From contig OY843585.1 of assembly GCA_963692945.1 (NCBI GenBank), forward strand, positions 720,001 through 752,000: a DNA stretch of 32,000 nt, given 5' to 3'. The DNA is from Bdellovibrionales bacterium. GTDB taxonomy: Bacteria > Bdellovibrionota > Bdellovibrionia > Bdellovibrionales > UBA1609. Below the pieces are notes generated by a model that saw only the letters and a program-made list of their open reading frames with translations, did no database searches and was not told where the DNA came from. Shown in pieces: positions 1,466 to 25,299 of this stretch (position 1 is the stretch's first letter; the number at the start of each line of letters is the position of its first letter). A program made the position numbers and the translations under genes.

Positions 1466-2806
1466 ATGTCAATCTCTCCATCTAAAAATCTGGATTACAA
1501 AGTTTGTTCTTCTGCAATGAAGGATAAAAAAGTCTTTCAAGAAATGGCTGTCTTTGGGAGAGAAGAAATCCTAATTGCTGAAAGAGAAATGCCTGGTTTG
1601 ATGGCTTTAAGAAAAGAGTATGGAGCTTCAAAGCCTCTTAAGGGAGCTCGTATTACAGGTTGTCTTCATATGACAATACAAACGGCTGTTCTTATAGAAA
1701 CTTTAAAACATTTGGGAGCAGAAATCAGATGGTCTTCTTGTAACATTTACTCTACACAAGATCATGCGGCTGTAGCCATGGCTCAATCAGGTGTTCCTGT
1801 TTTTGCTTGGAAGGGAGAGACAGAAGAAGAGTATCAATGGTGTATTGAGCAAACGGTTTATGGTTGGGGTGAACAAGGTTTTAATCTTATTATAGATGAC
1901 GGAGGAGATTTAACTCACTATATGCACGAAGAAAAACAGTCTTCTTTGATGAAAAAAGTTTTAGGTCTTTCGGAAGAGACCACAACAGGTATTCAAAATT
2001 TGGAAAAACTTCATAAAAAAAATCAACTTAAAGTTCCTGCTATCAATGTAAATGATTCTGTTACTAAATCTAAATTTGATAATTTATACGGGTGTCGGGA
2101 ATCTTTAGCGGATGGTTTAAAAAGAGCAACAGATGTTATGATTGCGGGTAAAAATGTGTTGGTTGCTGGTTATGGAGATGTGGGTAAGGGATGTGTTCAA
2201 AGTATGCAGGCTTATGGAGCTAGAGTTTTTGTGACAGAAATTGATCCCATCTGTGCTTTACAAGCTCGTATGGAAGGTTATGAGGTTGTTTTATTAGAGG
2301 ATGTTGTAGATAAAATAGATATTTTTGTAACGGCATCTGGTTGTAAAAGTGTCATTTGCAAACAGCATTTTGAAAAAATGAAACAAGGAGCCATTGTTTG
2401 TAACATAGGACATTTTGATGTGGAAATAGATATGGCTTGGCTCCATCAAAACACAGAATCACGAACCATAAAACCACAAGTTAAAATACATAAATTTAAA
2501 AATGGAAGAGAAATTATTGTTTTGGCTGATGGACGTCTTGTGAATTTAGGTTGTGCAACTGGACACTCTTCTTTTGTGATGAGTAACTCTTTTACGAATC
2601 AGGTTTTAGCTCAAATAGAACTTTGGAAGAATCATAAAAATTATCCTTTGGGAGTTTATGTTCTTCCTAAAATTTTAGATGAAAAAGTGGCACGGCTTCA
2701 TTTAGATCAACTGGGTGTGAAGCTTACAAAATTAACCAAAGAACAATCTGAGTACTTGAGTGTTCCTCAAGAAGGGCCTTTTAAACCCAAGCCTTATCGT
2801 TACTAA
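1466..2806 (+). CDS. ahcY: Adenosylhomocysteinase (S-adenosyl-L-homocysteine hydrolase)
   Basis: 446 aa. N-terminal DYKV...EMPGLMALR, the NAD-binding GYGDVGKG motif, and IGHFDVEID and NLGCATGH motifs. Confidence 0.95.
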
Positions 2807-3110
2807 GTCATTTGTTTTGTCCTAAGTTTTTTGCCGACAAGTTTCTAGCTTGTGAACAATCAACAACTAGAGAGTTTTTTTAATTTTATTTTGTCCTATG
2901 TTTTTGCTTTGTCTAAGTTTTTTGCTTTGTCCTAAGTTTTTTGCCGACAAGTTTCTAACTTGTGAACAACCAACAACTAGAGAGTTTTTTTAATTTTATA
3001 TTGTCCTATGTTTTTGCTTTGTCTAAGTTTTTTGCTTTGTCCTAAGTTTTTTGCCGACAAGTTTCTAGCTTGTAAACAATCAACAACTAGAGAGTTTTTT
3101 TAATTTTATA
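2807..3110. repeat. 110-bp tandem repeat, about 2.6 copies, filling the ahcY/hflX convergent spacer; includes the last ~8 codons and stop of hflX
   Basis: cctaagttttttgccgacaagtttcta(g/a)cttgt(g/a)aacaa(t/c)caacaactagagagtttttttaattttat... starts at 2821, 2931 and 3041. ctagagagtttttttaattttata is the reverse complement of the hflX end (KIKKTL-stop). Confidence 0.9.
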
Positions 3111-7206: not shown

Positions 7207-9285
7207 TTAAAAGCTGGTGTAACAGTTTTTGATTTTTGTGACGCAAAAATGATTCATGGAGTTGGAAACCATTTCAAAAATATTTTGATTGGCACTACCA
7301 ATAGATGATTTTGTTCCTGAATCTCTAGAACGATAGGTTTGAGGTAGTGTCACTGGTTTTTGATTGGAAGCTAGGGTTCGTTTCCCAAAACCTCCTTGTA
7401 AATAAGAACCACGACTTGTTGTTTTGGATTTTGAACTTGAGCCAAAAAATCTTGTTTTCACGGTTTGCCATGTGCTCATTGTTTCGGAGGGTGTTTCTGA
7501 TGTAGATTTCTGAAGGGCTGAACTGGCAAGATTGTTTTTTGATTCTTCATCTGTTTCCGTCAACTTGTTATCATCATTTATCCCAGGCACTAAGTCTTTT
7601 GTTTTTTTGTCGGTGTCTTCAAGACCATCAGGGGTTTCATCGTCTTTGGCCATTTTGTTTCTTTCTTCAAGGAATTTTTTTAAATCGTATGGGTCGCCGC
7701 CATTGGGTTTGTAAGGATTTCCTGATGGAGAACTTCCTGGTGATTCAGAAGTAGAACTTCTTACATTATATCCAGGTCCTACTTGAGAATAAGAAGGGGA
7801 TTGCGAGGGTAACCCATTGTATGAAGAAGAGTCTCCTTCTCCTGAGCTACCACCTGTTAAAGTTCCTGTTGACGATGGTTTATTAGGGTCTTTAGAGTTT
7901 TTAGCCAAACAAGCTTGTTCTGCATGACTTTTGGATTCTTTTTTTATTCTTTCTTCGTTTTTTTCGCTTAATATTATCTTTTCGCAACTTGGAAAATGAT
8001 CTATTGAAGCTCCTTTTGTAATTAATAAATATTCATCCGTTGATGGTTCATACAATTTTTTAGTAGAACTGCTATCAAAAAATTTATCTTTAATTTGTGT
8101 TAGAATCTCTTTATACTTTATAGAGATGTTCACAATGTGTTTCTCACATTTAGAGTTTTCATTAACGGCATCTTTAAAACTGGAAACATAAAAACACCTT
8201 TTAAATTTGTCACGGAATTGTTCTAGAGCAGTATTACAAGTGTTATGACATTGTTTTACATTAGCTTTACAGATATCTATTCTTTTATTATATATGTTAC
8301 TTTCTAAAAGCTCTTTATTTTTACATTGATGAGGATGAGGATTTTTTATATTTTTTAAGTAAGTATTAAAAGATTTTTTATGTTCACAGTCTTCTTGATC
8401 AAGATTACTGCAACAAGATTTTTTTGTTTCAGGATAGTGACCGCATTTGTATAAAAGAGTGTCGCCTTCTCCCTTATGAGGCTTGAGAAACTTATAGAGT
8501 TCTTTTATACAACCCTCCGGTTCGTTGATGTCGGTGTTACATCTTGCTTCTTTTTCCTCTTTAAGTTTTTCGATTTCTTTATTATATTGTTCTAGAAGAT
8601 TGGTATCGATGTTACAATGATTTATGTATATTTCCATTATTTTTTTAAAATATTCATGTGAACCTACTGTAAAATTTTTAAGTTTCAAACCATCATTAGA
8701 AGCAAAACCATCATGGCATAGATCTCTTGATTTTTTTAATTTGTTCCAATCACTATATAGATGTGTTCCTTCTTTTGGTTTGGGTTTTTTGTCTATCTCG
8801 TTTATCTGTCTGATTGTATTATCAAAATGTTTGTCAATTTTATCATTACAAAGACGTGTTAATTTTTTAAAACTAGATAAAGCCATACCTGCTGATGGTA
8901 TCGGGATATCAATTTTCTCCGTATTGTGTTTATAAACTATTTTATTAAAAATTTCTGTAAACTTTCCTGTAAACCTTCCAGAATTATGTTTTATATTTAA
9001 ATCGTTACAATGTTTATCAAAAAATATTCTATATCTTTGATTTGTGAAAGTAGCACGTTCATCAGTATCCGTATCCAAAAAACCTTCAAAATCTTGCATC
9101 TTTTCTCTTATATCGGTTGTTGTTAAATCAGTCTCCTCCTTAAATATATCTTCATCACTAGGACTAGAATAGAATTTTATTGTATTTATCTTGGGACAGT
9201 CATCACATGCGTTTGCTGAGCTTATAGATAAAAGACTTATCATGAGAAATAAAAAAGGTTTAAAAATTTTTGTAAAAGATAACAT
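7207..9285 (-). CDS. Large secreted cysteine-rich protein with a low-complexity S/T/G/P-rich C-terminal third (hypothetical)
   Basis: 692 aa. Signal peptide MLSFTKIFKPFLFLMISLLSISSANA. More than 30 Cys in residues ~27-460, then a Ser/Gly/Pro/Thr-rich region. No recognised catalytic motif. Confidence 0.7.
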   Translation of the reverse strand: MLSFTKIFKPFLFLMISLLSISSANACDDCPKINTIKFYSSPSDEDIFKEETDLTTTDIREKMQDFEGFLDTDTDERATFTNQRYRIFFDKHCNDLNIKHNSGRFTGKFTEIFNKIVYKHNTEKIDIPIPSAGMALSSFKKLTRLCNDKIDKHFDNTIRQINEIDKKPKPKEGTHLYSDWNKLKKSRDLCHDGFASNDGLKLKNFTVGSHEYFKKIMEIYINHCNIDTNLLEQYNKEIEKLKEEKEARCNTDINEPEGCIKELYKFLKPHKGEGDTLLYKCGHYPETKKSCCSNLDQEDCEHKKSFNTYLKNIKNPHPHQCKNKELLESNIYNKRIDICKANVKQCHNTCNTALEQFRDKFKRCFYVSSFKDAVNENSKCEKHIVNISIKYKEILTQIKDKFFDSSSTKKLYEPSTDEYLLITKGASIDHFPSCEKIILSEKNEERIKKESKSHAEQACLAKNSKDPNKPSSTGTLTGGSSGEGDSSSYNGLPSQSPSYSQVGPGYNVRSSTSESPGSSPSGNPYKPNGGDPYDLKKFLEERNKMAKDDETPDGLEDTDKKTKDLVPGINDDNKLTETDEESKNNLASSALQKSTSETPSETMSTWQTVKTRFFGSSSKSKTTSRGSYLQGGFGKRTLASNQKPVTLPQTYRSRDSGTKSSIGSANQNIFEMVSNSMNHFCVTKIKNCYTSF

Positions 9286-12251: not shown

Positions 12252-12830
12252 TTAACATATACCTAAAATTAGAACAGGAATATCAATGTTGGAAGTTCCT
12301 CTGGTTTCTAAGTCCCAAACAAATTGCTCAAAGTAAGACACTCCAGAAGACATTTCATCAGCTAATTCTTTTAATGGAACTATTTCTATGCCTGCATCAA
12401 TATGATCCAGATTTTTAAATATAGTCATCTTAGCACAAACATTATAAGCCATAAAAGCATACTTACCAAATTGAACTTCTACACCAAGACGATTTTTTAC
12501 AAAATCCATATCACGAAAAGCTCCTTGATTTAAAGGCTTAGGATTTTTATGGATTTCTGTATAGTAGTTTTTTGAATATTCACAATTTACTTTAAGAGAG
12601 TTCCAACCCAAAGGCGAAAGTGTTTTCTTAAATTGTTCATTAAACAATACAGGGCTATATAACTTTTTGCCTTTCATAGTTTTTTCTTTACTTATTTTCT
12701 TTTTACTATTTGATTTTTTAATTTTTTTTATACACGATTCAATTTCTAGTTTAGCATCTAGAAAATTTTTATTTATATAATCTTCACCATTGTTAAAACT
12801 AAATTTCCCTGCAATTTTCATTAAAACCAT
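12252..12830 (-). CDS. Type II restriction endonuclease, BglII/BamHI-like fold
   Basis: RDMDFVKNRLGVEVQFGKY reproduces the BglII catalytic D-x8-E-x-Q arrangement (BglII: DIDFGKRDTLVEVQF). The later IEIVPLK...SSGVSYFEQ resembles BglII VAIIITK...SSLYYEQ. The alternative start at 12821 gives a TAATG stop-start overlap with the methylase. Confidence 0.7.
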   Translation of the reverse strand: MVLMKIAGKFSFNNGEDYINKNFLDAKLEIESCIKKIKKSNSKKKISKEKTMKGKKLYSPVLFNEQFKKTLSPLGWNSLKVNCEYSKNYYTEIHKNPKPLNQGAFRDMDFVKNRLGVEVQFGKYAFMAYNVCAKMTIFKNLDHIDAGIEIVPLKELADEMSSGVSYFEQFVWDLETRGTSNIDIPVLILGIC

Positions 12831-13747
12831 TCCTTTGGAATTTGAGTGATTTTATCAGTCAATTTTGGTTGATGAATTTTTGTTCCAATCTTTCTAGTTT
12901 TTAAAACCCCTGCTTTTAAATCTTTAATTCTTAATTTTGCTTCATTACAATAATCCTTATCTTTCTCTATACAAATGCTATGCCTTCTATTTTTTAATGC
13001 AGCTAAAGCTGTTGTGCCAACTCCAGCAAATGGATCTAAAATCCAATCTTCTTGATTTGTAAAAGCTAAAACACAACGTTCTATAAGTTCAATAGGAAAT
13101 TGGCAAGGATGTGATGTTTTCTCAGGATGATTGGCTTTAACATTTGGTATGTCAATAATTCCACTATTAAACTCTTCTCTTATAAGTTCCCAAAAATCAG
13201 AAGGATTTTTACCTAGAGGGTTACCACTGGGTAGTCCCTTCTTTTTACCTTTAAAATGTCGTTTTCCTGGATATTTTGAAGGTACTCTAATATCATCAAG
13301 ATTAAATGTATAACTATCATTTTTTGTGAACCAAAGTAAAGTCTCATACCGACCAGAAAGACGTTTTGAGGCATGCAATCCGTGGTTGAAATGCCAAATG
13401 ATTCTATTTCGCAGTTTTAAACCTAACTCTTTAAAAATAGGATAGAAATAAATGTCAAGAGGGTAAACTTCCCCCTTATCTACAAAATTACCTACCTGCC
13501 AACAAAGACTTCCATTTTTTTTAAGAACTCTACAGAGTTCCTTTATAACTTCCTTTTGCCAATCCAAATAAGAACTAAGACCTATTTTTTTTTCATAGGA
13601 CTTTCCAAGATTATAAGGAGGAGATGTGATAACTAATTTCATACTTTGTTTATCTATTTTAGAAAGACCTTTAAAGACATCTTCATTGTATATAATAGAA
13701 TTTAATTTTGATTTATCATCATCTTTAAAAATTGACATTTGTTCCAT
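12821..13747 (-). CDS. DNA methyltransferase, beta-class N4/N6 (SPPY motif, probably N4-cytosine)
   Basis: Motif IV TSPPYNLGK is near the N-terminus and motif I LDPFAGVGTT near the C-terminus (IV-to-I order, beta class). It overlaps the endonuclease gene. Confidence 0.88.
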   Translation of the reverse strand: MEQMSIFKDDDKSKLNSIIYNEDVFKGLSKIDKQSMKLVITSPPYNLGKSYEKKIGLSSYLDWQKEVIKELCRVLKKNGSLCWQVGNFVDKGEVYPLDIYFYPIFKELGLKLRNRIIWHFNHGLHASKRLSGRYETLLWFTKNDSYTFNLDDIRVPSKYPGKRHFKGKKKGLPSGNPLGKNPSDFWELIREEFNSGIIDIPNVKANHPEKTSHPCQFPIELIERCVLAFTNQEDWILDPFAGVGTTALAALKNRRHSICIEKDKDYCNEAKLRIKDLKAGVLKTRKIGTKIHQPKLTDKITQIPKEWF

Positions 13748-13888
13748 AAAATTCCTACTTAAAGATATAGATTTTAGTTTTTGATTTATTAGTATAATAC
13801 TATATATTTAGCTTGTTTAGAATCAATATCTATAAAAAAAATTATGTAGCGTGTCAGGTAAATTTTAATAAAGAGGGTTAATTAAGTT

Positions 13889-14113
13889 ATGAAAATATTT
13901 TTATTGTTAGGATTGGTTATTGTTTCTTTTGGTTGTTGGGAAGAAGATTATAATTCTTATTTTCCTCCTGGGCAATCTTTTACATATCCTGATAAGAGCT
14001 TATCTGAAATTCAACTCACTGGTGATTATTCTGTATTAGGAACTAAAGAAACAGGAAAGTATAAGGTTACTGAGAAATATAAAAAAATCAAGAAACTACC
14101 TAAACGTAAATAA
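13889..14113 (+). CDS. Small putative lipoprotein or secreted protein (74 aa)
   Basis: AGAGGG Shine-Dalgarno sequence. MKIFLLLGLVIVSFGC is a signal peptide with a lipobox-like SFGC. Confidence 0.5.
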   Translation: MKIFLLLGLVIVSFGCWEEDYNSYFPPGQSFTYPDKSLSEIQLTGDYSVLGTKETGKYKVTEKYKKIKKLPKRK

Positions 14114-14226
14114 ATGGCACAATAAAACAGAATTGAAGATCAAGATATTTTTTTATAGAGTCTATAAACTTATAGTTGAGTGGCTAAACTATTTATCTCA
14201 GATGGATATTACAAAACAATTTTATT

Positions 14227-15762
14227 TTAATCAGCATGTGCAGCTGTTTTTGCAAATTCCATAAGAATTTTTTTACATTTTTCCATTCTCATTTTAATTT
14301 TTGTCCTAGTTTTGAAATTAAATTTATTATTTTTTAAATATTCTTCTAAAAATTTTATTTCAAAATGAACTAAATCTATCTTAAGACGTAAGAGATGATT
14401 ATTTTTAGATAAATTATGTAATTCCCAATTTTTGTTAAAAAAAGGATTTTTAAAGTTATTGTCAAAAAGTTTTTCTGTAGGGATTCTGTTTTTTGATAAA
14501 AATTCTATAATCTCATCTGGTAAAAGTATGTCACTTTCTTCTAAAGAATCTAACAATTCATTAATATTTTGAACTCCTTCATAGATTCTTTGTATTATCT
14601 TAAAAGGCTCATCTTCATAATCTACTTTCATTTTTAAATCTGGTATTATATGCTCATGCTCTTCTGCATTTTTAATATCTTTCCAATATTCTTCCATATC
14701 ATTCTTAATAAATGGAAGATTATATTTATTGTCATCTTTATAAAATTTTAGATAGATATCATCATTTTTAGTTTCCTCATTTTCACAAATATTCTTCTGA
14801 GAAAAAAATAATGCTATATTTTTACCCTGAGAATCTTTAGAACTTCCATAGATTATACCATGAGAGCCTTGTTTTTTGATATATTCAGATAAAATCTGAG
14901 TTGGAACATAATCTGTATGCTCTCTACCATCTTTTTTTATTGGCTCAGATAATTTTGTTGCAAATTCTTGGATAAAAATTAAATCATTTCTTTTTTTCCT
15001 CTGATTTTCATTTATATCAAAAAAGCTTGGTATTTCTTCATTGCTTTTTAAAGTTAAATCAATAACTTGTATTTCCTTTAAAAGTTGAAATTCTGCAATA
15101 TAGGCAAGCCCTTTATGGTCTAAAGAAATTTCAGTTAAAGCCATTTTTTTGTCAAAAGAAGCATATAAAATTGGTATTCTAGGAGGACTCATTCTATTAG
15201 AAGTATTCATAATATCTTCTGGTTCTGGAGGGCCCATTCTTCTTAGATCATTTACAATGCAATTACCTTCTGTAAAAGCTCTAGCTCTATATATTTTTAT
15301 TTGTTTTGTTGGTTTTATATTTTTTTTTAGATCATTTTTTTCTATTATTTTCATTGCTTCTTGTAAAATATTAGTTTGAGAAGAAAAGAAAAATCTCTTT
15401 TCTTTTTTTACATAGTTAGAAAAATCATCCCATTTTTTTAAGAATCCTCTTCTATCAATTAGATGTACTTTTCCAAGTTTGCTTTTAATGAGAGTTTTAG
15501 CATCCTGAAGTAGTTTTTCTTTCTGAACGGGGAAGTAATTTTCCATGAAATCTGATAATGTTTCAGAGTTATTATTTGATCTAGTTATACAATAAATTTC
15601 TTTTAAACAAATAAGAATGTGGTCAATTAGTTTCTCTAAATGGACGGTTTTCTTATTTTTATTTTGACAGTAGTTACAGTCAGAAATTGTTCCATTGTGA
15701 TTTATGAATTTTTTTAACCCAGGTTCATTTTCTAAGCATATCTCACAACAAATAAGAGACAT
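14227..15762 (-). CDS. RES-domain protein with an N-terminal CxxC...CxxC zinc-ribbon-like module and a ~170-aa helical C-terminal extension
   Basis: 511 aa. N-terminal CCEIC...CNYC. RES signature in order: KIYRARAF (R), NRMSPPRIPILYAS...ALTEISL (E), DYVPTQILSEYIKKQGSHGIIYGSS (S). Confidence 0.75.
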   Translation of the reverse strand: MSLICCEICLENEPGLKKFINHNGTISDCNYCQNKNKKTVHLEKLIDHILICLKEIYCITRSNNNSETLSDFMENYFPVQKEKLLQDAKTLIKSKLGKVHLIDRRGFLKKWDDFSNYVKKEKRFFFSSQTNILQEAMKIIEKNDLKKNIKPTKQIKIYRARAFTEGNCIVNDLRRMGPPEPEDIMNTSNRMSPPRIPILYASFDKKMALTEISLDHKGLAYIAEFQLLKEIQVIDLTLKSNEEIPSFFDINENQRKKRNDLIFIQEFATKLSEPIKKDGREHTDYVPTQILSEYIKKQGSHGIIYGSSKDSQGKNIALFFSQKNICENEETKNDDIYLKFYKDDNKYNLPFIKNDMEEYWKDIKNAEEHEHIIPDLKMKVDYEDEPFKIIQRIYEGVQNINELLDSLEESDILLPDEIIEFLSKNRIPTEKLFDNNFKNPFFNKNWELHNLSKNNHLLRLKIDLVHFEIKFLEEYLKNNKFNFKTRTKIKMRMEKCKKILMEFAKTAAHAD

Positions 15763-15989
15763 TAATTTTCTTTATCTCTTGGAGGGAATGGATCATTTCC
15801 GTAAGAATCTTTAGAACGAATTTTTCCATCTCTACCGTGGGTTACAACTTCAGATTTAGATATTTTAGCTCTAACAGTTGCACTTTTTATAGCATTTTTT
15901 TGAGTATTATGTGAAGACAATACGCGTCCAGAATTTTTTACAGACCAACCTTTTCCTAGTTTTACAATATGAAAGTCTTTTTTAGACAT
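15762..15989 (-). CDS. DUF2188-family small protein
   Basis: 75 aa. FHIVKLGKGWSVKNSG...THGRDGKIRSKDSYGNDPFPPRD matches the DUF2188 pattern (WaVk...HgrdGrI...DSYGnDP.PP). Its TAATG stop-start overlaps the RES gene. Confidence 0.75.
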   Translation of the reverse strand: MSKKDFHIVKLGKGWSVKNSGRVLSSHNTQKNAIKSATVRAKISKSEVVTHGRDGKIRSKDSYGNDPFPPRDKEN

Positions 15990-16334: not shown

Positions 16335-16841
16335 TTACCTGCAATCTGATAGAAAGCAACCACCATTTCTAGAGCCTACATGTTTTAATTTTATCGTATT
16401 CCCTTGATTATCTGTGCAAGCTGTTTTGTAGTTTAATTTTTCATGGGAAACATCAAGACAAATAAAACCTCTGCTATGACTAACTTCACCACCACAATGA
16501 AGCCCTTTTATAATTGAACGATTATAACTACCGCTTCTTATAGATATCTGATTCGGAGGAAGAGGGGATGAGTGTGTGATTGGGGTTCCAGCACCTGCAG
16601 TTCCAGCCCTTCCATAACTATCGCATTTAATTCCTATTTCAGAGTAGGAATCACACTCACTGAGAGGTTTAAGAGTTAAACAAGCTTCTAAGGCTTTGCT
16701 AATGTTTGTAATACTAGCATTTATTACTCTTAAAGCAGCTTTACTTTGATATTTATTGTAAGCAGGTATCACAATAGAAGCTAATACTCCTACAATTCCA
16801 ACTACGATTAAAACTTCTATAAGTGAAAAACCTTTTTTCAT
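16335..16841 (-). CDS. Type IV pilin-like protein (prepilin N-terminal cleavage/methylation motif)
   Basis: MKKG|FSLIEVLIVVGIVGVLASIVIPAY is a class III signal with Glu5. The C-terminal domain contains Cys. Confidence 0.85.
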   Translation of the reverse strand: MKKGFSLIEVLIVVGIVGVLASIVIPAYNKYQSKAALRVINASITNISKALEACLTLKPLSECDSYSEIGIKCDSYGRAGTAGAGTPITHSSPLPPNQISIRSGSYNRSIIKGLHCGGEVSHSRGFICLDVSHEKLNYKTACTDNQGNTIKLKHVGSRNGGCFLSDCR

Positions 16842-16902: not shown

Positions 16903-17508
16903 CTAAAAGCCAGGAACAACAGGGGATGGCTTGAACTCTGTCGGTGTAAAAATTTTTGGAAGTGCTGGAGGGTTTCTTCCTCCACTTAATCCTGGATGAG
17001 TGTGTGTAGGTGCAGGATGATTGTGTGGATGATCGTGTGCAGGTGTTGCATGAGTGTGTGCAGTTGTTGCATGAGTGTGTGCAGGTGTTGCATGAGTGTG
17101 TGCAGTTGCAGGATGAGTGTGTGGAGGTATAGAAGCTAAATTTCTCACAACACCACACCTGTTACTCGTATCGGTAGGGGAAGACTTATAAAGTTCACAA
17201 CATTGCTCTAAAGTAACTCCCTCATCTAAAGTAAATTTTGAATCATCTCTTTCAAGACTTAATTCAAAGTTAGCCCCTGTGCTTTTGCTTGGGTCTGTAA
17301 CTTCAATAGGTCTTATCAAATCTTGTGATTTTAAAACTCTTTCAATCTCTTTTTTACAAGCATCATTCGGTCTTGGATCAGGGGGGTTCGTGGCAAGATT
17401 GTTTATGGCTAGATAGACTTTCATTTTAGCCCAATCTCTTTTGTATTTTTTTTGAATTTTAGATTGGGATTGAGACTGAGAAACCAAAACACTTCCCATT
17501 CCCAGCAT
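16903..17508 (-). CDS. His-rich pilin-like (minor-pilin-like) protein; the listed ORF is N-terminally truncated relative to an open frame reaching 17643
   Basis: The frame is open upstream of Met-17508 and encodes ...INNPQG|STLISVLIASVIGTIVMLGMG (prepilin-like hydrophobic N-terminus lacking Glu5). The C-terminus has (AHTHATP)n repeats. The nearest upstream ATG (17655-17657) is out of frame across a G10 tract. Confidence 0.6.
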   Translation of the reverse strand: MLGMGSVLVSQSQSQSKIQKKYKRDWAKMKVYLAINNLATNPPDPRPNDACKKEIERVLKSQDLIRPIEVTDPSKSTGANFELSLERDDSKFTLDEGVTLEQCCELYKSSPTDTSNRCGVVRNLASIPPHTHPATAHTHATPAHTHATTAHTHATPAHDHPHNHPAPTHTHPGLSGGRNPPALPKIFTPTEFKPSPVVPGF

Positions 17509-17625
17509 AACTATTGTCCCTATTACACTGGCTATTAAGACCGAGATTAAAGTTGAACCTTGAGGGTTGTTTATAGGGGATAAGAGTTTGTAAATGAGAA
17601 AAGACTTACATCTTTTGAAGTAAGA

Positions 17626-17635
17626 GGGGGGGGGG
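17626..17635 (-). repeat. G10 (C10 on the coding strand) homopolymer in the 5' region of the His-rich pilin-like gene
   Basis: taagaGGGGGGGGGGtgaaa is the longest G/C homopolymer seen in this AT-rich window. Confidence 0.95.
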
Positions 17636-17853
17636 TGAAAATTTTATTTAATGACATATAAATATTATCGGCTAAATAAGAAAATATTTCAAATATAAAA
17701 ATAAAGAGATCAAATAGTGGGGAATTTTGCAAACTTAAAATAAATTAGCTTGTCCCCTTAAAAACACCTTGCTTTTCAAGCCTTTCAATCATTCGTTTAA
17801 GTTATTATTTTCTACTTTACATCTTACTATTTTTAAAATAGGTATAGGGGGTT

Positions 17854-18615
17854 ATGAACCTACTTATATCCTTACTTATGAACCTACTTATATCCTTATT
17901 TGTCTTTTTAACTATGGCGACGCAAGCTCTATCGCCTCATGATCTTTTAAACCAAGAACTCATTGAGGCATCTAAGCGTGGTGATAAAGCTCAAGTTGAA
18001 CAGTTACTTCATAGAAACGAAATCAGTCTCTATGCTAGAAATAGAGAAGGAAAAACGGCTCTTATATTAGCGTCTCAAAAAGGTCGTGCAGATATTGTTG
18101 AACTGTTGCTCGCTAAAGGATTTGATGTCAATGCTCATGGTAAAAATGCAGTAAAAACGGCTCTTATATTAGCATCTCAAAAAGGCTATACAGATATCGT
18201 TGAACTGTTGCTCAATGCAGGAGCTAATCCTAATGCTCAAAATTTATTGGAAGAAACGGCTCTTATATTAGCGTCTCAAAAAGGTTATAAGAGTATCGTT
18301 AAACTGCTGATTGTTTCCGAAGACATTGATACAGAAATTAAGAATAGGTATAAAAACACCGCTCGCATGTTGGCTCTTCAAAAAGGTCATAAAGAGATTG
18401 TTCGTTTACTTGATGAGGCAAACGTTAAAAATGAGGCAAACGCTACAAAGAACACAACTAGTTTGGACTCGAGAGACTCGAGAGATTGGTGGAATCCGCA
18501 GACCAAGGCAGATGCTACAAATAACACAACTAGTTTGGAACCTAATAAGGCAAGAAAAAGCAATTGCAAAAAATATTTTTTTAGAGCGAACTCTCATTTA
18601 CAAAAACCTCTGTAA
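17854..18615 (+). CDS. Ankyrin-repeat protein with an N-terminal signal or hydrophobic segment
   Basis: 253 aa with four or more ANK units (GKTALILASQKGxxDIVELLLxxGAxxNA). The first 24 nt, including the ATG, are tandemly duplicated (MNLLISLL-MNLLISLF). Confidence 0.85.
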   Translation: MNLLISLLMNLLISLFVFLTMATQALSPHDLLNQELIEASKRGDKAQVEQLLHRNEISLYARNREGKTALILASQKGRADIVELLLAKGFDVNAHGKNAVKTALILASQKGYTDIVELLLNAGANPNAQNLLEETALILASQKGYKSIVKLLIVSEDIDTEIKNRYKNTARMLALQKGHKEIVRLLDEANVKNEANATKNTTSLDSRDSRDWWNPQTKADATNNTTSLEPNKARKSNCKKYFFRANSHLQKPL

Positions 18616-18660
18616 ATAAAGTTTTCAATATCACTGAGTGTTAAACTGTTTGAGCTAATA

Positions 18661-18775
18661 AAAGTGTCTCAATTTATCTCACTAAAAAAAGTGTCTCAAT
18701 TGAAAAAAGTGTTTCACTGAAAAAAGTGTCTCAATTTGTTTTACTAATAAAAGTGTCTCAATTTGTTTTACTAAA
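18661..18775 (+). repeat. Five copies of an aaagtgtctcaat(ttgttttacta) motif between the ankyrin gene and the pilin gene
   Basis: Cores lie at ~18661, 18688, 18706 (variant gtgtttcac), 18724 and 18750. Another copy lies at ~20371. Confidence 0.8.
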
Positions 18776-18867
18776 AAAGCCTTAGTTTATTTGATTCTAT
18801 AAAAAAATTTTTAATTTATGTATGTAATGAGTCATAATTTTATTTTGAACAATAACAAAAGGAGTTA

Positions 18868-19512
18868 ATGATGTTTAACATGAATAAAAAGATTCGTTCT
18901 TGCTTTAGAAAAAATAAAGGATTTTCATTGATAGAATTACTTGTAGTTGTAGAAATTATTGGAATTTTAGTTGCTGTGGCTATACCAACATACAATCACT
19001 ATAAAGTGGATGCCGCTCAATCTTCATTGACAGCCTCTCTACACTCTATCGGGAAAGCTTTTGCTGCTTGTCTTGCATTGAGGTCTTTTAGTAATTGCAA
19101 CAGTCTATCAGAACTAAAAGTAAGTTGTCCGGACTGTACTAAAGAATCCACTGGAAGAACGGCTATACCTTATTGTGTTGAAGCTAAATTACAGGCAGGA
19201 GGAATAAACCATAAGGCATGTATGTCTTCTTCAGGAGGAATTCCTTTAATTACTGGTAACTGGGATAGTCTTTGTAAGAACATGTCAGCAGATTATATTT
19301 GTAATGCTGCAGGTAATGGATACAATGCACGATCTTCTTGTAATCAGATAGGTTGTTCTAACCCATCTGAATCTATCCCATCAGGTTCATGTACAGCAGC
19401 AGTTACTCGTAAATTCCGTAACTGTGGTGATGACAATAATCCTGAAGCTCGCTCAACGGCTAGTAGCTCTGGTGGAAGTTGTGACACTACAACTGGATTG
19501 TGTAGCCAATAA
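18868..19512 (+). CDS. Type IV pilin-like protein, Cys-rich C-terminal domain
   Basis: AAGGAG Shine-Dalgarno sequence. ...FRKNKG|FSLIELLVVVEIIGILVAVAIPTY class III signal. 214 aa, about 14 Cys. Confidence 0.85.
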   Translation: MMFNMNKKIRSCFRKNKGFSLIELLVVVEIIGILVAVAIPTYNHYKVDAAQSSLTASLHSIGKAFAACLALRSFSNCNSLSELKVSCPDCTKESTGRTAIPYCVEAKLQAGGINHKACMSSSGGIPLITGNWDSLCKNMSADYICNAAGNGYNARSSCNQIGCSNPSESIPSGSCTAAVTRKFRNCGDDNNPEARSTASSSGGSCDTTTGLCSQ

Positions 19513-23105: not shown

Positions 23106-23651
23106 CTAATGGCATGTGTGAAAGGTAAAATTGCAATTTCCTCCAGAGACACCAGATTTGCCATTGTGTGATGACCCTCCTGCACTATCAATGCAAACTC
23201 TCAATGTTACTCTGTTAGTTCCTTGGAATCCAAGTTTTTGATATTCTTTTTTTATGGAATTTGGACTTACTATAACGCACCATTTTGAAGGGTCTGAAGT
23301 GTTGCTAAGTGTATAATAAGAGTCGATAAATATATGAAAGGTAAAGAAGTTTTTTTCTTTGAAAAGTTTGTCCTTTGCCTTGTTAATTGTGTCCAAGGTA
23401 GTTAGATTGATATAGCCTTTATAGGCTTGAGTGGACATAACAGATTCTTGGACTATTAAAACGTTTGATAGTATTTTTTGAACAAGAGATGCATTTTTGT
23501 ATTTTTGATAGGAAGGAATAGCAATAGCCGTTAAAAGACCTATAATCGCTATAGTTGCAAGCATCTCCATGAGAGAAAATCCTATGTTTTTGGGATTCAT
23601 TTTTAAAAATGAAATGGATTTTTTGTCCGTTGAAACAAAGTTTGCTTTCAT
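23106..23651 (-). CDS. Type IV pilin-like protein
   Basis: ...MNPKNIG|FSLMEMLATIAIIGLLTAIAIPSY class III signal with Glu5. 181 aa from the first ATG; the true start may be the internal MNPKNIG. Confidence 0.8.
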   Translation of the reverse strand: MKANFVSTDKKSISFLKMNPKNIGFSLMEMLATIAIIGLLTAIAIPSYQKYKNASLVQKILSNVLIVQESVMSTQAYKGYINLTTLDTINKAKDKLFKEKNFFTFHIFIDSYYTLSNTSDPSKWCVIVSPNSIKKEYQKLGFQGTNRVTLRVCIDSAGGSSHNGKSGVSGGNCNFTFHTCH

Positions 23652-23847: not shown

Positions 23848-23941
23848 AACTGCAAAAGATTAAAACCGAGAAGGGCAAAAGAGGTTCAAACACTAACTGC
23901 AAAAGATTAAAACCGAGAAGGGCAAAAGAGGTTCAAACACT
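23848..23941 (+). repeat. 47-bp tandem repeat x2, immediately upstream of the resB/ccsB start codon
   Basis: aactgcaaaagattaaaaccgagaagggcaaaagaggttcaaacact occurs at 23848 and 23895. The ATG is at 23944. Confidence 0.93.
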
Positions 23942-23943
23942 AT

Positions 23944-25299
23944 ATGAAAAACATTTTACAATTTATTTATGATTTTTTTATATCTTTAAAACTGGCTGTT
24001 TTTACTTTATTATTACTGGCTTTTTCTACAGCCATTGGAACTTTTATAGAGTCCAAATACAATCAAGAAATAGCGAACAAATGGATTTACCATTCTTGGG
24101 TGATGATGATCATTCTCTCTCTTTTGGCTATCAATTTATTTTTTGTTTTAATTGATCGTTGGCCTTGGAAAAAACGACAAATTGGTTTTGTTCTGGCTCA
24201 TATAGGAATTTTGATGATGATTCTTGGTTCTGTAATGACCAGATACTTTGGGATAGATGCTGTGTTGAGCGTAACAGAGGGGCAGAGTACTTCTGTTATG
24301 AGGCTTCCAGAAAGACAGATTAAAATTTATTCCTCCTTTGATGGTTCTAAATTCACTCTTTTGTATGAAAAAGATATTGATTTTTTCTTTCAGCGACCAA
24401 CTGAGAAAACCCCCTATAATGTTTTAGTGGCGGATGAGATTTTTCATATAGACAAGTATATGCCTTATGGGAATCCTCGTGAAAATTATAAAAAAAGTTT
24501 AACAGGAGGAGAACCAGCCGTTCGGTTTTATTTGGAAGGGAGAATGGGAAAGTTTGTAGATTGGATTCAAATTGAAAAAGGAAAAAAAACCATCACAAAA
24601 ACCATGGGACCTGTTTTTATCACTTTGACAAAAAATAGAAACTACCAAAAGCAAAAAAAGAAGGAGATGATTTTGTTTGTTGAAAATAATAAATTATTTT
24701 ATTCTTTATTTTCTTCTTTGAAAAAAAGAATTAAAGTTGGAGAGGTCTTTCAAACTCAATGGATGGATTTTAAGTTTCGTCTTATTGAGTTTTTTCCAAA
24801 ATCTAAAAAAGAATTTATTTTTTATCCTCAAAAAACCCCTACAGAAAACACACTGCAAGCCATTCAAGTTCGTTACCAGGGTAATTCCTCTTGGATTGGT
24901 GAAAACTCTTACACTCGTTTTTATACAAAGGATCGTGTTTATGCTTTTGGTTATCTTAATAAGACCAAATCTCTTGGGTTTGATTTGAAGTTGATAGATT
25001 TTCGCAGAACGAAGTATCAAGGAAGTGAAAAAGCCAAAACTTATGAGAGTGAGGTGGAGATTTTAGGAGAAACAAAAGTTATTTCTATGAATGAACCTTT
25101 AAAGTATGGAGGTTATACCTTTTATCAATCTAGTTTTGAGGAAAATGAAAGGGGAGAAGCAAAAACTTCTATTTTTTCTGTCAATCGTGATCCCGGACGA
25201 ATTGTAAAGTATGTAGGTGCTTTTCTCATTGTTGTAGGTATTGCTTTGTTATTTTTGAAGCGAAAGATTTTTGGTTTAAAGAAAAAAATAACAATTTGA
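23944..25299 (+). CDS. ccsB: Cytochrome c biogenesis protein ResB/Ccs1 (System II)
   Basis: 451 aa. N-terminal FISLKLAVFTLLLLAFSTAIGTFIE. TM segments flank a large periplasmic domain. C-terminal YTFYQSSF...FSVNRDPG motif. Confidence 0.85.
   Translation: MKNILQFIYDFFISLKLAVFTLLLLAFSTAIGTFIESKYNQEIANKWIYHSWVMMIILSLLAINLFFVLIDRWPWKKRQIGFVLAHIGILMMILGSVMTRYFGIDAVLSVTEGQSTSVMRLPERQIKIYSSFDGSKFTLLYEKDIDFFFQRPTEKTPYNVLVADEIFHIDKYMPYGNPRENYKKSLTGGEPAVRFYLEGRMGKFVDWIQIEKGKKTITKTMGPVFITLTKNRNYQKQKKKEMILFVENNKLFYSLFSSLKKRIKVGEVFQTQWMDFKFRLIEFFPKSKKEFIFYPQKTPTENTLQAIQVRYQGNSSWIGENSYTRFYTKDRVYAFGYLNKTKSLGFDLKLIDFRRTKYQGSEKAKTYESEVEILGETKVISMNEPLKYGGYTFYQSSFEENERGEAKTSIFSVNRDPGRIVKYVGAFLIVVGIALLFLKRKIFGLKKKITI

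Follow-up and report, generated by a model that had tools for sequence, protein, structure and literature searches.

Switching of pilus adhesins through changes in homopolymer length is textbook biology in Neisseria, Haemophilus, Campylobacter and Bordetella. In the pilC genes of Neisseria, the tract lies within the region that encodes the signal peptide, and in the fim system of Bordetella a poly-C tract in the promoter controls a fimbrial gene. The pilC tract has been described as a genic, phase-variable G(9-20) repeat (PMC5953494, citing Jonsson et al. 1991), and the length of a poly-C tract controls the surface-protein gene opc of Neisseria (PMC3960869). Here, we describe a locus of related layout in a 32,000-nucleotide (nt) stretch of DNA from a Bdellovibrionales bacterium (GenBank assembly GCA_963692945.1, contig OY843585.1, positions 720,001 to 752,000), which we call the window. 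In this locus, a run of ten G nucleotides on the plus strand, which is a run of ten C nucleotides (C10) on the coding strand, separates an ATG from the body of a pilin-like gene. We consider it fairly probable, from comparisons of sequence, that C10 is a slipped-strand contingency locus, i.e. that it confers translational phase variation on this gene. All coordinates of the gene are read on the minus strand of the window.

The locus resembles pilC1 and pilC2 of Neisseria gonorrhoeae and N. meningitidis in that a G/C tract near the 5′ end sets the reading frame of a pilus-associated gene, with switching in our case proposed by analogy, and in that the tract falls in the region encoding an export signal. 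However, PilC/PilY1 is large, is not a pilin and has a Sec signal peptide, whereas the tract described here lies in a class III-type leader, that of a pilin-like protein. The two proteins have no sequence relationship and belong to different phyla. The tracts of fim and opc lie in or upstream of the promoter and tune transcription, whereas C10 starts inside the open reading frame (ORF), which is a translational layout.

The C10 tract occupies positions 17626-17635 and is the sole G/C run longer than 6 nt in the window, whose G+C content is 31.9%. Under a first-order Markov model, about 0.006 runs of 10 nt or more are expected in the window, which upholds the statement of the initial annotation that such a run is improbable by chance. 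Read along the minus strand, the order of elements is TTGAAA, 17 nt, GATAAT, atttat, ATG TCA TTA AAT AAA ATT TTC A, C10 and TCT TAC. The ATG at 17655-17657, which we propose to be the true start of the pilin-like gene, has upstream ATGs at the equivalent position in homologues. The tract begins 22 nt past this ATG, inside the 5′ coding region, and has the length expected of a simple sequence repeat of this kind (approximately 8 nt or more). With ten C nucleotides, the ATG frame encodes MSLNKIFTPPPLTSKDVSLFSFTNSYPL and ends at the stop codon 17573-17571; this short ORF (17571-17657) comprises 28 codons including the ATG. The initial annotation had described the frame as crossing the tract and then stopping after 27 codons; the course of the frame is as described, and the count was one too low. 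The frame of the pilin-like gene opens at 17643, directly after a TAA, and reads NFHPPPSYFKRCKSFLIYKLLSPINNPQG|STLISVLIASVIGTIVMLGMG (where the vertical bar marks the predicted cleavage site), with no ATG, GTG or TTG until the ATG at 17508. The minus-strand reading and its translation thus confirm that the tract lies between an upstream ATG and the pilin-like body, and that the prepilin-like frame is open up to 17643 without an ATG. Downstream of the leader, the body begins STLISVLIASVIGTIVMLGMGS and continues in the same frame to the stop codon at 16905-16903, giving an open frame of 246 amino acids (aa) plus stop.

When we simulated other tract lengths, C8, C11 and C14 joined the two frames into proteins of 250, 251 and 252 aa, respectively, in agreement with the earlier estimate of about 251 aa for C8 or C11, and C7, C9, C10, C12, C13 and C15 yielded peptides of 16-29 aa. 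The length of the repeat, then, sets the frame of the start codon relative to an intact ORF, and the ATG at 17657 is the only ATG, GTG or TTG that a change in tract length can join to the prepilin motif. Since shuffling the body 20,000 times never gave a frame open over 246 codons (base composition predicts approximately 5e-7), the body is neither decayed nor a chance ORF. We rejected the ATG at 17508 as the real start: it lies within the hydrophobic helix, its product would have no export signal, and it is not conserved in P0002, a paralogue on the same contig.

A consensus scan of the minus strand found a −35-like TTGAAA at 17687-17692 and a −10-like GATAAT at 17664-17669, which are separated by a 17-nt spacer and together match the consensus at 10 of 12 positions. 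The −10-like box ends 6 nt before the ATG and so predicts a transcript start at or beside it, which suggests a leaderless mRNA beginning at ATG 17657. In two relatives (loci L081 and L082, see below), there is likewise a sigma-70-like −35/−10 pair whose −10 box ends exactly 6 nt 5′ of the ATG. This geometry occurs at 1.2% of all ATGs in the window and at none of its other 23 gene starts. We discarded the idea that leaderless genes are common in this genome, because several genes do lack a Shine-Dalgarno (SD) sequence but only the pilin-like gene has a −10 box abutting its ATG. No sigma-54 −24/−12 element was seen by eye upstream of the gene. Moreover, neither the consensus scan nor inspection by eye revealed a −35/−10 pair spanning or following the tract on the minus strand, where the only promoter-like site near the gene is the one at 17692-17664, upstream of the ATG. 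The tract is therefore neither between nor just upstream of the −35 and −10 boxes, as it would be in the fim, opc or porA type of control. Nor does another relative (locus L085) have a divergently oriented gene upstream on which its tract could act. Judged from the sequence, this layout is not that of a promoter-spacer mechanism like those of fim and opc.

The product has several properties of a prepilin. Read in the pilin frame, the segment 3′ of the tract (SYFKRCKSFLIYKLLSPINNPQG, 17557-17625) contains no start codon, ends in the Gly of a predicted prepilin-peptidase site and resembles the leaders of the related proteins P0006, P0007 and P0010 in length and in basic/hydrophobic character. 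It is followed by a hydrophobic stretch of 21 residues (STLISVLIASVIGTIVMLGMG, 17494-17556) that looks like an alpha1N helix. NNPQG|STLISVLIASVIGTIVMLGMG accordingly has the hydrophilic leader ending in Gly and the approximately 21 hydrophobic residues that define a class III signal peptide (PMC4471445). At position 5, the protein has Ser in place of the usual Glu (Glu5), and all members of its family have Ser or Gly there. Some minor pseudopilins of the tip (the GspK class) also have no Glu5. Glu5 is dispensable for processing (PMC4471445). There is no match of the protein to TIGR02532, and NCBIfam gives sub-threshold hints only, to PpdC/PilW-type prepilin peptidase-dependent proteins. A profile search of the PDB found no relative, and an AlphaFold2 model from a four-sequence alignment has one helix over residues 6-62 with a mean predicted local distance difference test score (pLDDT) of 47 and an unresolved head. 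After the helix comes a conserved N-terminal domain (N-domain; 17131-17493) with K..W, Cys and V..QCC.LY motifs. It is followed by a His-rich C-terminal module (16993-17128) of (A/P)HTHAT[PT]-type repeats, whose His-rich stretch is HTHPATAHTHATPAHTHATTAHTHATPAHDHPHNHPAPTHTHP. This module is encoded by a 21-nt tandem repeat (4.5 copies with 89% matches according to Tandem Repeats Finder), which also has sub-periods of 12 and 33 nt. The 21-nt repeat could be a second repeat able to slip, in this case in frame, and the His-rich part is a possible metal-binding module. The protein is prepilin-like and probably a tip-type modular minor pilin, although formal membership of the pilins is not established.

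The family is very rare, with approximately eight members among 15 billion proteins, and has no Pfam model. A word-indexed search of 5.8 billion proteins matched only the gene's own truncated product (P0001) and the paralogue P0002. The latter has 273 aa, an N-domain 82% identical to that of our protein and an unrelated C-terminus. Its called N-terminus, MLSVLIAS, falls within the hydrophobic helix, so that it, too, has no called start upstream of its prepilin motif. A HMMER scan of 1.84 billion representatives with the N-domain added four members (P0005 to P0008, E = 4e-7 to 1e-4), and later searches added P0010 and P0012. Two further matches of the HMMER scan, P0004 and P0009, are repeat proteins that match short segments and were rejected as members. 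The members share G|(S/F)xL(I/V)(S/G)V..(A/T)S..G, K..W, a conserved Cys and V..QCC, and one of them, P0008, lies just over the Pfam N_methyl threshold (21.4 bits). Other searches found nothing more: there are no orthologues among one genome per GTDB species; peptide patterns had no match in a scan of JGI metagenomes; the DNA pattern AATAAAANNYTCAC7 matched 59 times in these metagenomes, in each case by chance and away from any family gene; exact-protein look-ups of P0002, our protein and both its neighbours returned no record; and synteny by way of the adjacent amidohydrolase led only to distant Oligoflexia/Bdellovibrionales metagenome-assembled genomes (57% and 56% identity) from which the gene is missing. 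None of the collections searched yielded a second genome of the species.

The 5′ ends of these relatives carry simple repeats at the same place. At locus L085, which encodes P0010, AAGGA is followed after 8 nt by ATG AAA AAG CAT AAG TTA TTG AAT AAA AAG CTC A, a tract of 15 C nucleotides (C15, 7874-7888) and G AAT CTA ... AAT AAT AAA GGA TTT AGT. The layout is thus an SD sequence and ATG, 11 codons, C15, 22 codons and then G|FSLVG. The ATG frame ends shortly past the tract. The pilin frame, KAHPPPPPNLVFNQKRLNLHSLYSSLNNKG|FSLVG, crosses the tract without a stop and has no start codon; C16 or C13 would join the two. At L145 (P0012), a Logan contig starts with C9, such that the tract has at least nine C nucleotides, and continues with the leader-like HLLLKCKFLFFHKLSFLLKK, a frame break at A7 and KNNKLSYLNQKG|SALVSV. 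At L084 (P0008, from the same sample as L085), only a decayed tract, CACACCCTCCCC, is left; the ORF from the upstream ATG ends short of it, and a new AAGGAGG with a TTG start provides a leader of 15 aa. At L081 (P0006), ATG AAA AAA GCC TAT AAA TCT is followed by (AG)4 and TCC, and is in frame with a leader of 42 aa. The same sequence with (AG)5 is found at L082 (P0007), where the ATG is out of frame and the gene caller used a TTG further on. Finally, L083 (P0005) has an ordinary AAGGAG and ATG with a leader of 10 aa. Even in distant members, then, the part of the leader that separates an upstream ATG from the G|S/F cleavage motif has poly-C or (AG)n in the same place. These repeats (C10, C15, at least C9, (AG)4, (AG)5 and the decayed tract) are in different genes, some of them from low-quality assemblies.

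Such repeats are otherwise scarce. In the window and the family loci, approximately 82 kb in all, G/C runs of 8 nt or more occur only at the leader poly-C tracts, the repeat in L082 is the only (AG)5, and there is one unrelated (AC)6 elsewhere in L085. Furthermore, the sequence before the tract is kept between the window and L085 both as DNA (TYATTRAATAAAA..YTCAC-Cn) and as a peptide in the ATG frame, with SLNKIFTPPP in the window and LLNKKLTPPP in L085 (LNKxxTPPP). The relatives thus back the earlier proposal that the tract is inside the coding leader of a gene starting at ATG 17657 and that its length sets the frame. In terms of sequence, the ancestral layout of the family is a start, a few codons, a slippery repeat, a long basic/hydrophobic leader and then Gly| and the hydrophobic helix. 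Beside this layout, a 9-bp inverted repeat, CTTTATTCC...GGAATAAAG, is conserved between L085 (7805-7838) and L084 (5885-5920). It surrounds GATAAG just 5′ of the SD sequence and ATG, and is a possible operator or 5′ hairpin.

We favour phase variation because simple repeats recur in the family at one and the same point of the leader. The gene would then extend from ATG 17657 to the stop at 16903, and its product would consist of a leader of about 34 aa, G|STLISVLIAS without Glu5, the N-domain and the His-rich repeats, with cleavage by a prepilin peptidase predicted after the Gly. Strand slippage during replication would alter the length of a presumably hypermutable C10. Lengths of C8, C11 and C14 would be ON, with the tract read as two to four Pro residues (Pro-Pro-Pro where the frame is intact) and proteins of 250-252 aa, and C9, C10 (the assembled state), C12 and C13 would be OFF, with translation ending within 16-29 codons. 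A population would in this manner reversibly toggle a surface protein, as Neisseria does with pilC.

Several observations weigh against this proposal. The length of C10 is known from one assembly of one genome, and both of the poly-C tracts that can be measured, those of the window and L085, need exactly one more nucleotide to be in frame, a pattern that systematic under-calling of long homopolymers would produce. L085 also has two more frame breaks, one of them at a T4 run, which marks it as a pseudogene or as part of a noisy assembly and makes the length of C15 unreliable, and the coverage of L082 is only 2.75x according to its contig name. No SD sequence precedes ATG 17657; a leaderless mRNA would explain this, but leaderless initiation is itself deduced from the promoter-like site. 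As for the protein, it scores 18.7 bits against Pfam N_methyl (PF07963), under the cut-off of 21.2. Its leader of about 34 aa exceeds the 6-26 aa given for class III signal peptides (PMC4471445). However, leader length in intact members is 10, 15 or 42 aa, which makes a long leader nothing unusual for this family.

Some of these points could reflect an error of assembly or consensus, in which the true length is C11 or a mixture dominated by C11 and the gene is intact; the tract would be prone to mutation in that case too, but the OFF state of the assembled sequence would be spurious. Long G/C homopolymers are a classic residual error of long-read and some short-read platforms, and the source is a single contig of 1.56 Mb that was probably assembled from long reads. 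The shared need for one more C in the window and L085 fits such errors, as does the additional 1-nt break at the T4 run of L085, and the contig of L145 ends inside its own tract. On the other hand, 61 A/T runs of 7-9 nt lie within intact ORFs of the window, which indicates that the assembly is well polished up to 9-mers. Moreover, P0002 on the same contig was also called truncated; an error would have to have struck that locus too, unless both genes are truly OFF. We regard an assembly error as unlikely, but as the likeliest of the rival explanations.

We judge it improbable that the gene is a recent pseudogene, in which a 1-nt loss from C11 has become fixed and decay has begun, with no adaptive switching. 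This would suit a genome as small as 1.56 Mb and a family that is fast-evolving and patchy, in which our protein and that of L085 share only about 33-37% identity; it would also suit L085, which is broken in three frames, and L083 and L084, which have breaks between the N-domain and the C-terminal module. However, the 246-codon body free of stops (see above), an N-domain still 82% identical to that of P0002, and an intact promoter-like site and ATG speak against an inactivation of any age, and a frameshift that lies wholly in a 10-nt homopolymer can easily revert.

There is very little to recommend a non-canonical start past the tract, at the ATT at 17595-17593 (for a leader of 13 aa) or the ATA at 17574-17572 (6 aa), with the tract then in the 5′ untranslated region (UTR), where it would tune transcription, mRNA stability or translation rather than the frame. 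The sequence ATA-NNPQG|S does mimic a classic short leader (compare MNPKNIG|F inside the leader of the pilin gene at 23106-23651), and the short leaders of P0005 and P0008 (10 and 15 aa) begin near that position. Yet starts at ATA and ATT are very rare, and nothing resembling an SD sequence precedes either codon, although GGAG or AAGGA is present in P0005, in P0008 and in all three of the window's other pilin genes. In addition, the pilin frame of the window, L085 and L084 has no stop and keeps its leader-like character as far as the tract, the peptide upstream of the tract is conserved in the ATG frame, and no promoter-like site spans or follows the tract. The competing proposal of the initial annotation, that the ATA is a mutated ATG and the tract acts at the level of the promoter or 5′ UTR, fails on the same grounds: the ATA has no SD sequence ahead of it and is not the start of any homologue, and the predicted promoter is situated 5′ of the ATG.

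Equally hard to credit is decoding without a change in DNA, whereby RNA polymerase slippage would add a C, or ribosomes would shift by −1 on C_CCC_CCC, to give a constant low level of full-length protein: the ATG and pilin frames do differ by −1, all codons of the tract are CCC such that tRNA-Pro can re-pair, both measurable tracts are in the state that needs one more nucleotide, and other bacteria with small genomes do rescue genes frameshifted at long homopolymers by slippage during transcription, but the well-documented bacterial cases involve A/T runs, (AG)4 and (AG)5 in L081 and L082 fit slippage at the DNA level instead, and this process is compatible with DNA-level phase variation rather than exclusive of it.

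Returning to phase variation of a pilin-like protein, the C-terminal modules of the family differ from one another. The His-rich module of our protein is missing from P0002, which has its own unrelated tail, P0006 has a Cys-rich tail, and P0007 and the L085 protein have tail-fibre-like NTFxGxxAG repeats, a Peptidase_S74 chaperone domain and a coiled coil. P0007 (L082, 5294-7855) is an intact fusion of 853 aa, in which the prepilin-like N-domain is joined to approximately 25 NTF(I/L/M)G..AG repeats, Peptidase_S74 (an endosialidase chaperone) and a C-terminal coiled coil, in other words a module of the phage tail-fibre type on a pilin-like anchor. As a separate observation, the N-domain and the NTFxGxxAG module are in different frames in three members, with junctions at G7 in L083 (659-665), at a stop plus a shift in L084 (6630-6700), and at the T4 run (8275-8291) and one more shift at about 9000-9195 in L085. 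These mid-gene breaks may be sequencing noise, decay or a second homopolymer control of short and long forms. One N-domain with varied C-terminal modules recalls the modular type IV pilins, and the missing Glu5 recalls tip pseudopilins of the GspK/PilX class. In modular pilins such as PilB and PilC of Streptococcus sanguinis, a small pilin module carries a grafted C-terminal module that is probably exposed at the tip (PMC8179133). In contrast to these proteins, our family has no detectable relative in sequence or solved structure, its pilin fold is unconfirmed (pLDDT 47), and its leaders are up to 42 aa long.

As a tentative and rather doubtful extension, a conserved 5′ cassette consisting of promoter, leaderless ATG, poly-C or AG repeat and long leader might drive a set of paralogous, Glu5-less modular tip pilins that are switched independently of each other, in an uncultured, small-genome, ankyrin-rich, Bdellovibrionota-like lineage. 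Under this scheme, short or long forms may be selected by additional homopolymers where N-domain and C-terminal module meet.

The genes around the locus include other pilins. A canonical pilin gene (MKKG|FSLIE) lies 61 nt downstream on the minus strand, at 16335-16841, with its own SD sequence AAGGA and matches to N_methyl (27 bits) and TIGR02532 (31 bits). The consensus scan found no terminator-like or promoter-like site on the minus strand of the 61-nt gap, and this gene may be co-transcribed with the pilin-like gene, in which case an OFF phase could have a polar effect on it. Two more pilin genes are located within 6 kb, at 18868-19512 and 23106-23651, and the window contains no prepilin peptidase or assembly genes. 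The leaders of these two pilin genes are MMFNMNKKIRSCFRKNKG|F (18 aa) and MKANFVSTDKKSISFLKMNPKNIG|F (24 aa), respectively, with an SD sequence before the upstream ATG in both; leaders of such length seem to be usual for the prepilins of this organism. Upstream of the first of these genes, by 90-220 nt, the intergenic region 18647-18778 has approximately five copies of AGTGTCTCAATT within a 17/27-nt tandem repeat, which looks like an array of regulator-binding sites or a variable-number promoter repeat. Between the second and resB (23944), there is a direct duplication of approximately 46 nt, GTGTTTGAACCTCTTTTGCCCTTCTCGGTTTTAATCTTTTGCAGTT x2 (23855-23945, minus strand, found by eye), in a divergent intergenic region.

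Divergent from the pilin-like gene is an ankyrin-repeat gene, over whose start a perfect 24-nt tandem duplication, TTATGAACCTACTTATATCCTTAC x2, extends on the plus strand (17852-17898), with two in-frame ATGs (MNLLISLLMNLLISL). Beside the pilin genes, positions 12252-15989 hold a cluster with the appearance of a defence or mobile element. It encodes a restriction-modification pair, a BglII-like endonuclease and an N4/N6 DNA methylase, in ORFs that overlap by 10 nt, and a 511-aa toxin-type RES-domain protein with a HEPN/RES N-terminal domain, the start of which overlaps the stop of a DUF2188 gene. Further along the window are genes for ResB/CcsA, cytochrome c7 and an alternative-complex-III-like subunit. 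Locus L081 comes from a close relative, in which ResB, cytochrome c7 and ActB are 82%, 89% and 90% identical to those of the window and, as in the window, are encoded beside the family gene. At this locus (1485-3106), the ccsA homologue, which is intact with 540 aa in the window, is in at least three frame pieces, owing to frameshifts in the assembly or to decay. Rfam and tRNA scans of the window found nothing.

Within the broader lineage, the locus can be compared with the hit locus of Bdellovibrio bacteriovorus, where mutations are mostly deletions between short direct repeats and not the result of homopolymer slippage. The hit locus (bd0108) is part of a type IVa pilus cluster. Its mutation changes the lifestyle of the cell and has been tied to the extrusion and retraction of pili (PMC3818213), and the switch rate is approximately 1 in 10^7 cells (PMC3539863). 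As proposed for our locus, a small, mutation-prone gene is situated in a pilus locus of the same broad lineage. However, the switch rate of the hit locus is low, and Bd0108 is neither pilin-like nor homologous to our family.

Bdellovibrio-like and Oligoflexia-like bacteria depend on type IV pili for attachment to prey or host. To our knowledge, homopolymer switches of this sort are essentially undescribed in them. The type of switch is a known one; what is new is the very rare protein family and the lineage that carries it. The comparisons define a previously unnamed pilin-like family with exchangeable surface modules, and recognition of the repeats explains why annotators called shortened proteins in four of its approximately eight members (our gene and P0002 included), with N-termini in the leader, at the hydrophobic helix or beyond it. 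If our proposal is correct, an uncultured bacterium with a reduced genome would use the same bet-hedging as the pathogens in which it is familiar, and would apply it to a pilin-like subunit itself. If the idea of a shared 5′ cassette should hold as well, independent switching of the paralogues would amount to a combinatorial, heritable choice of pilus targets, be they prey or host.

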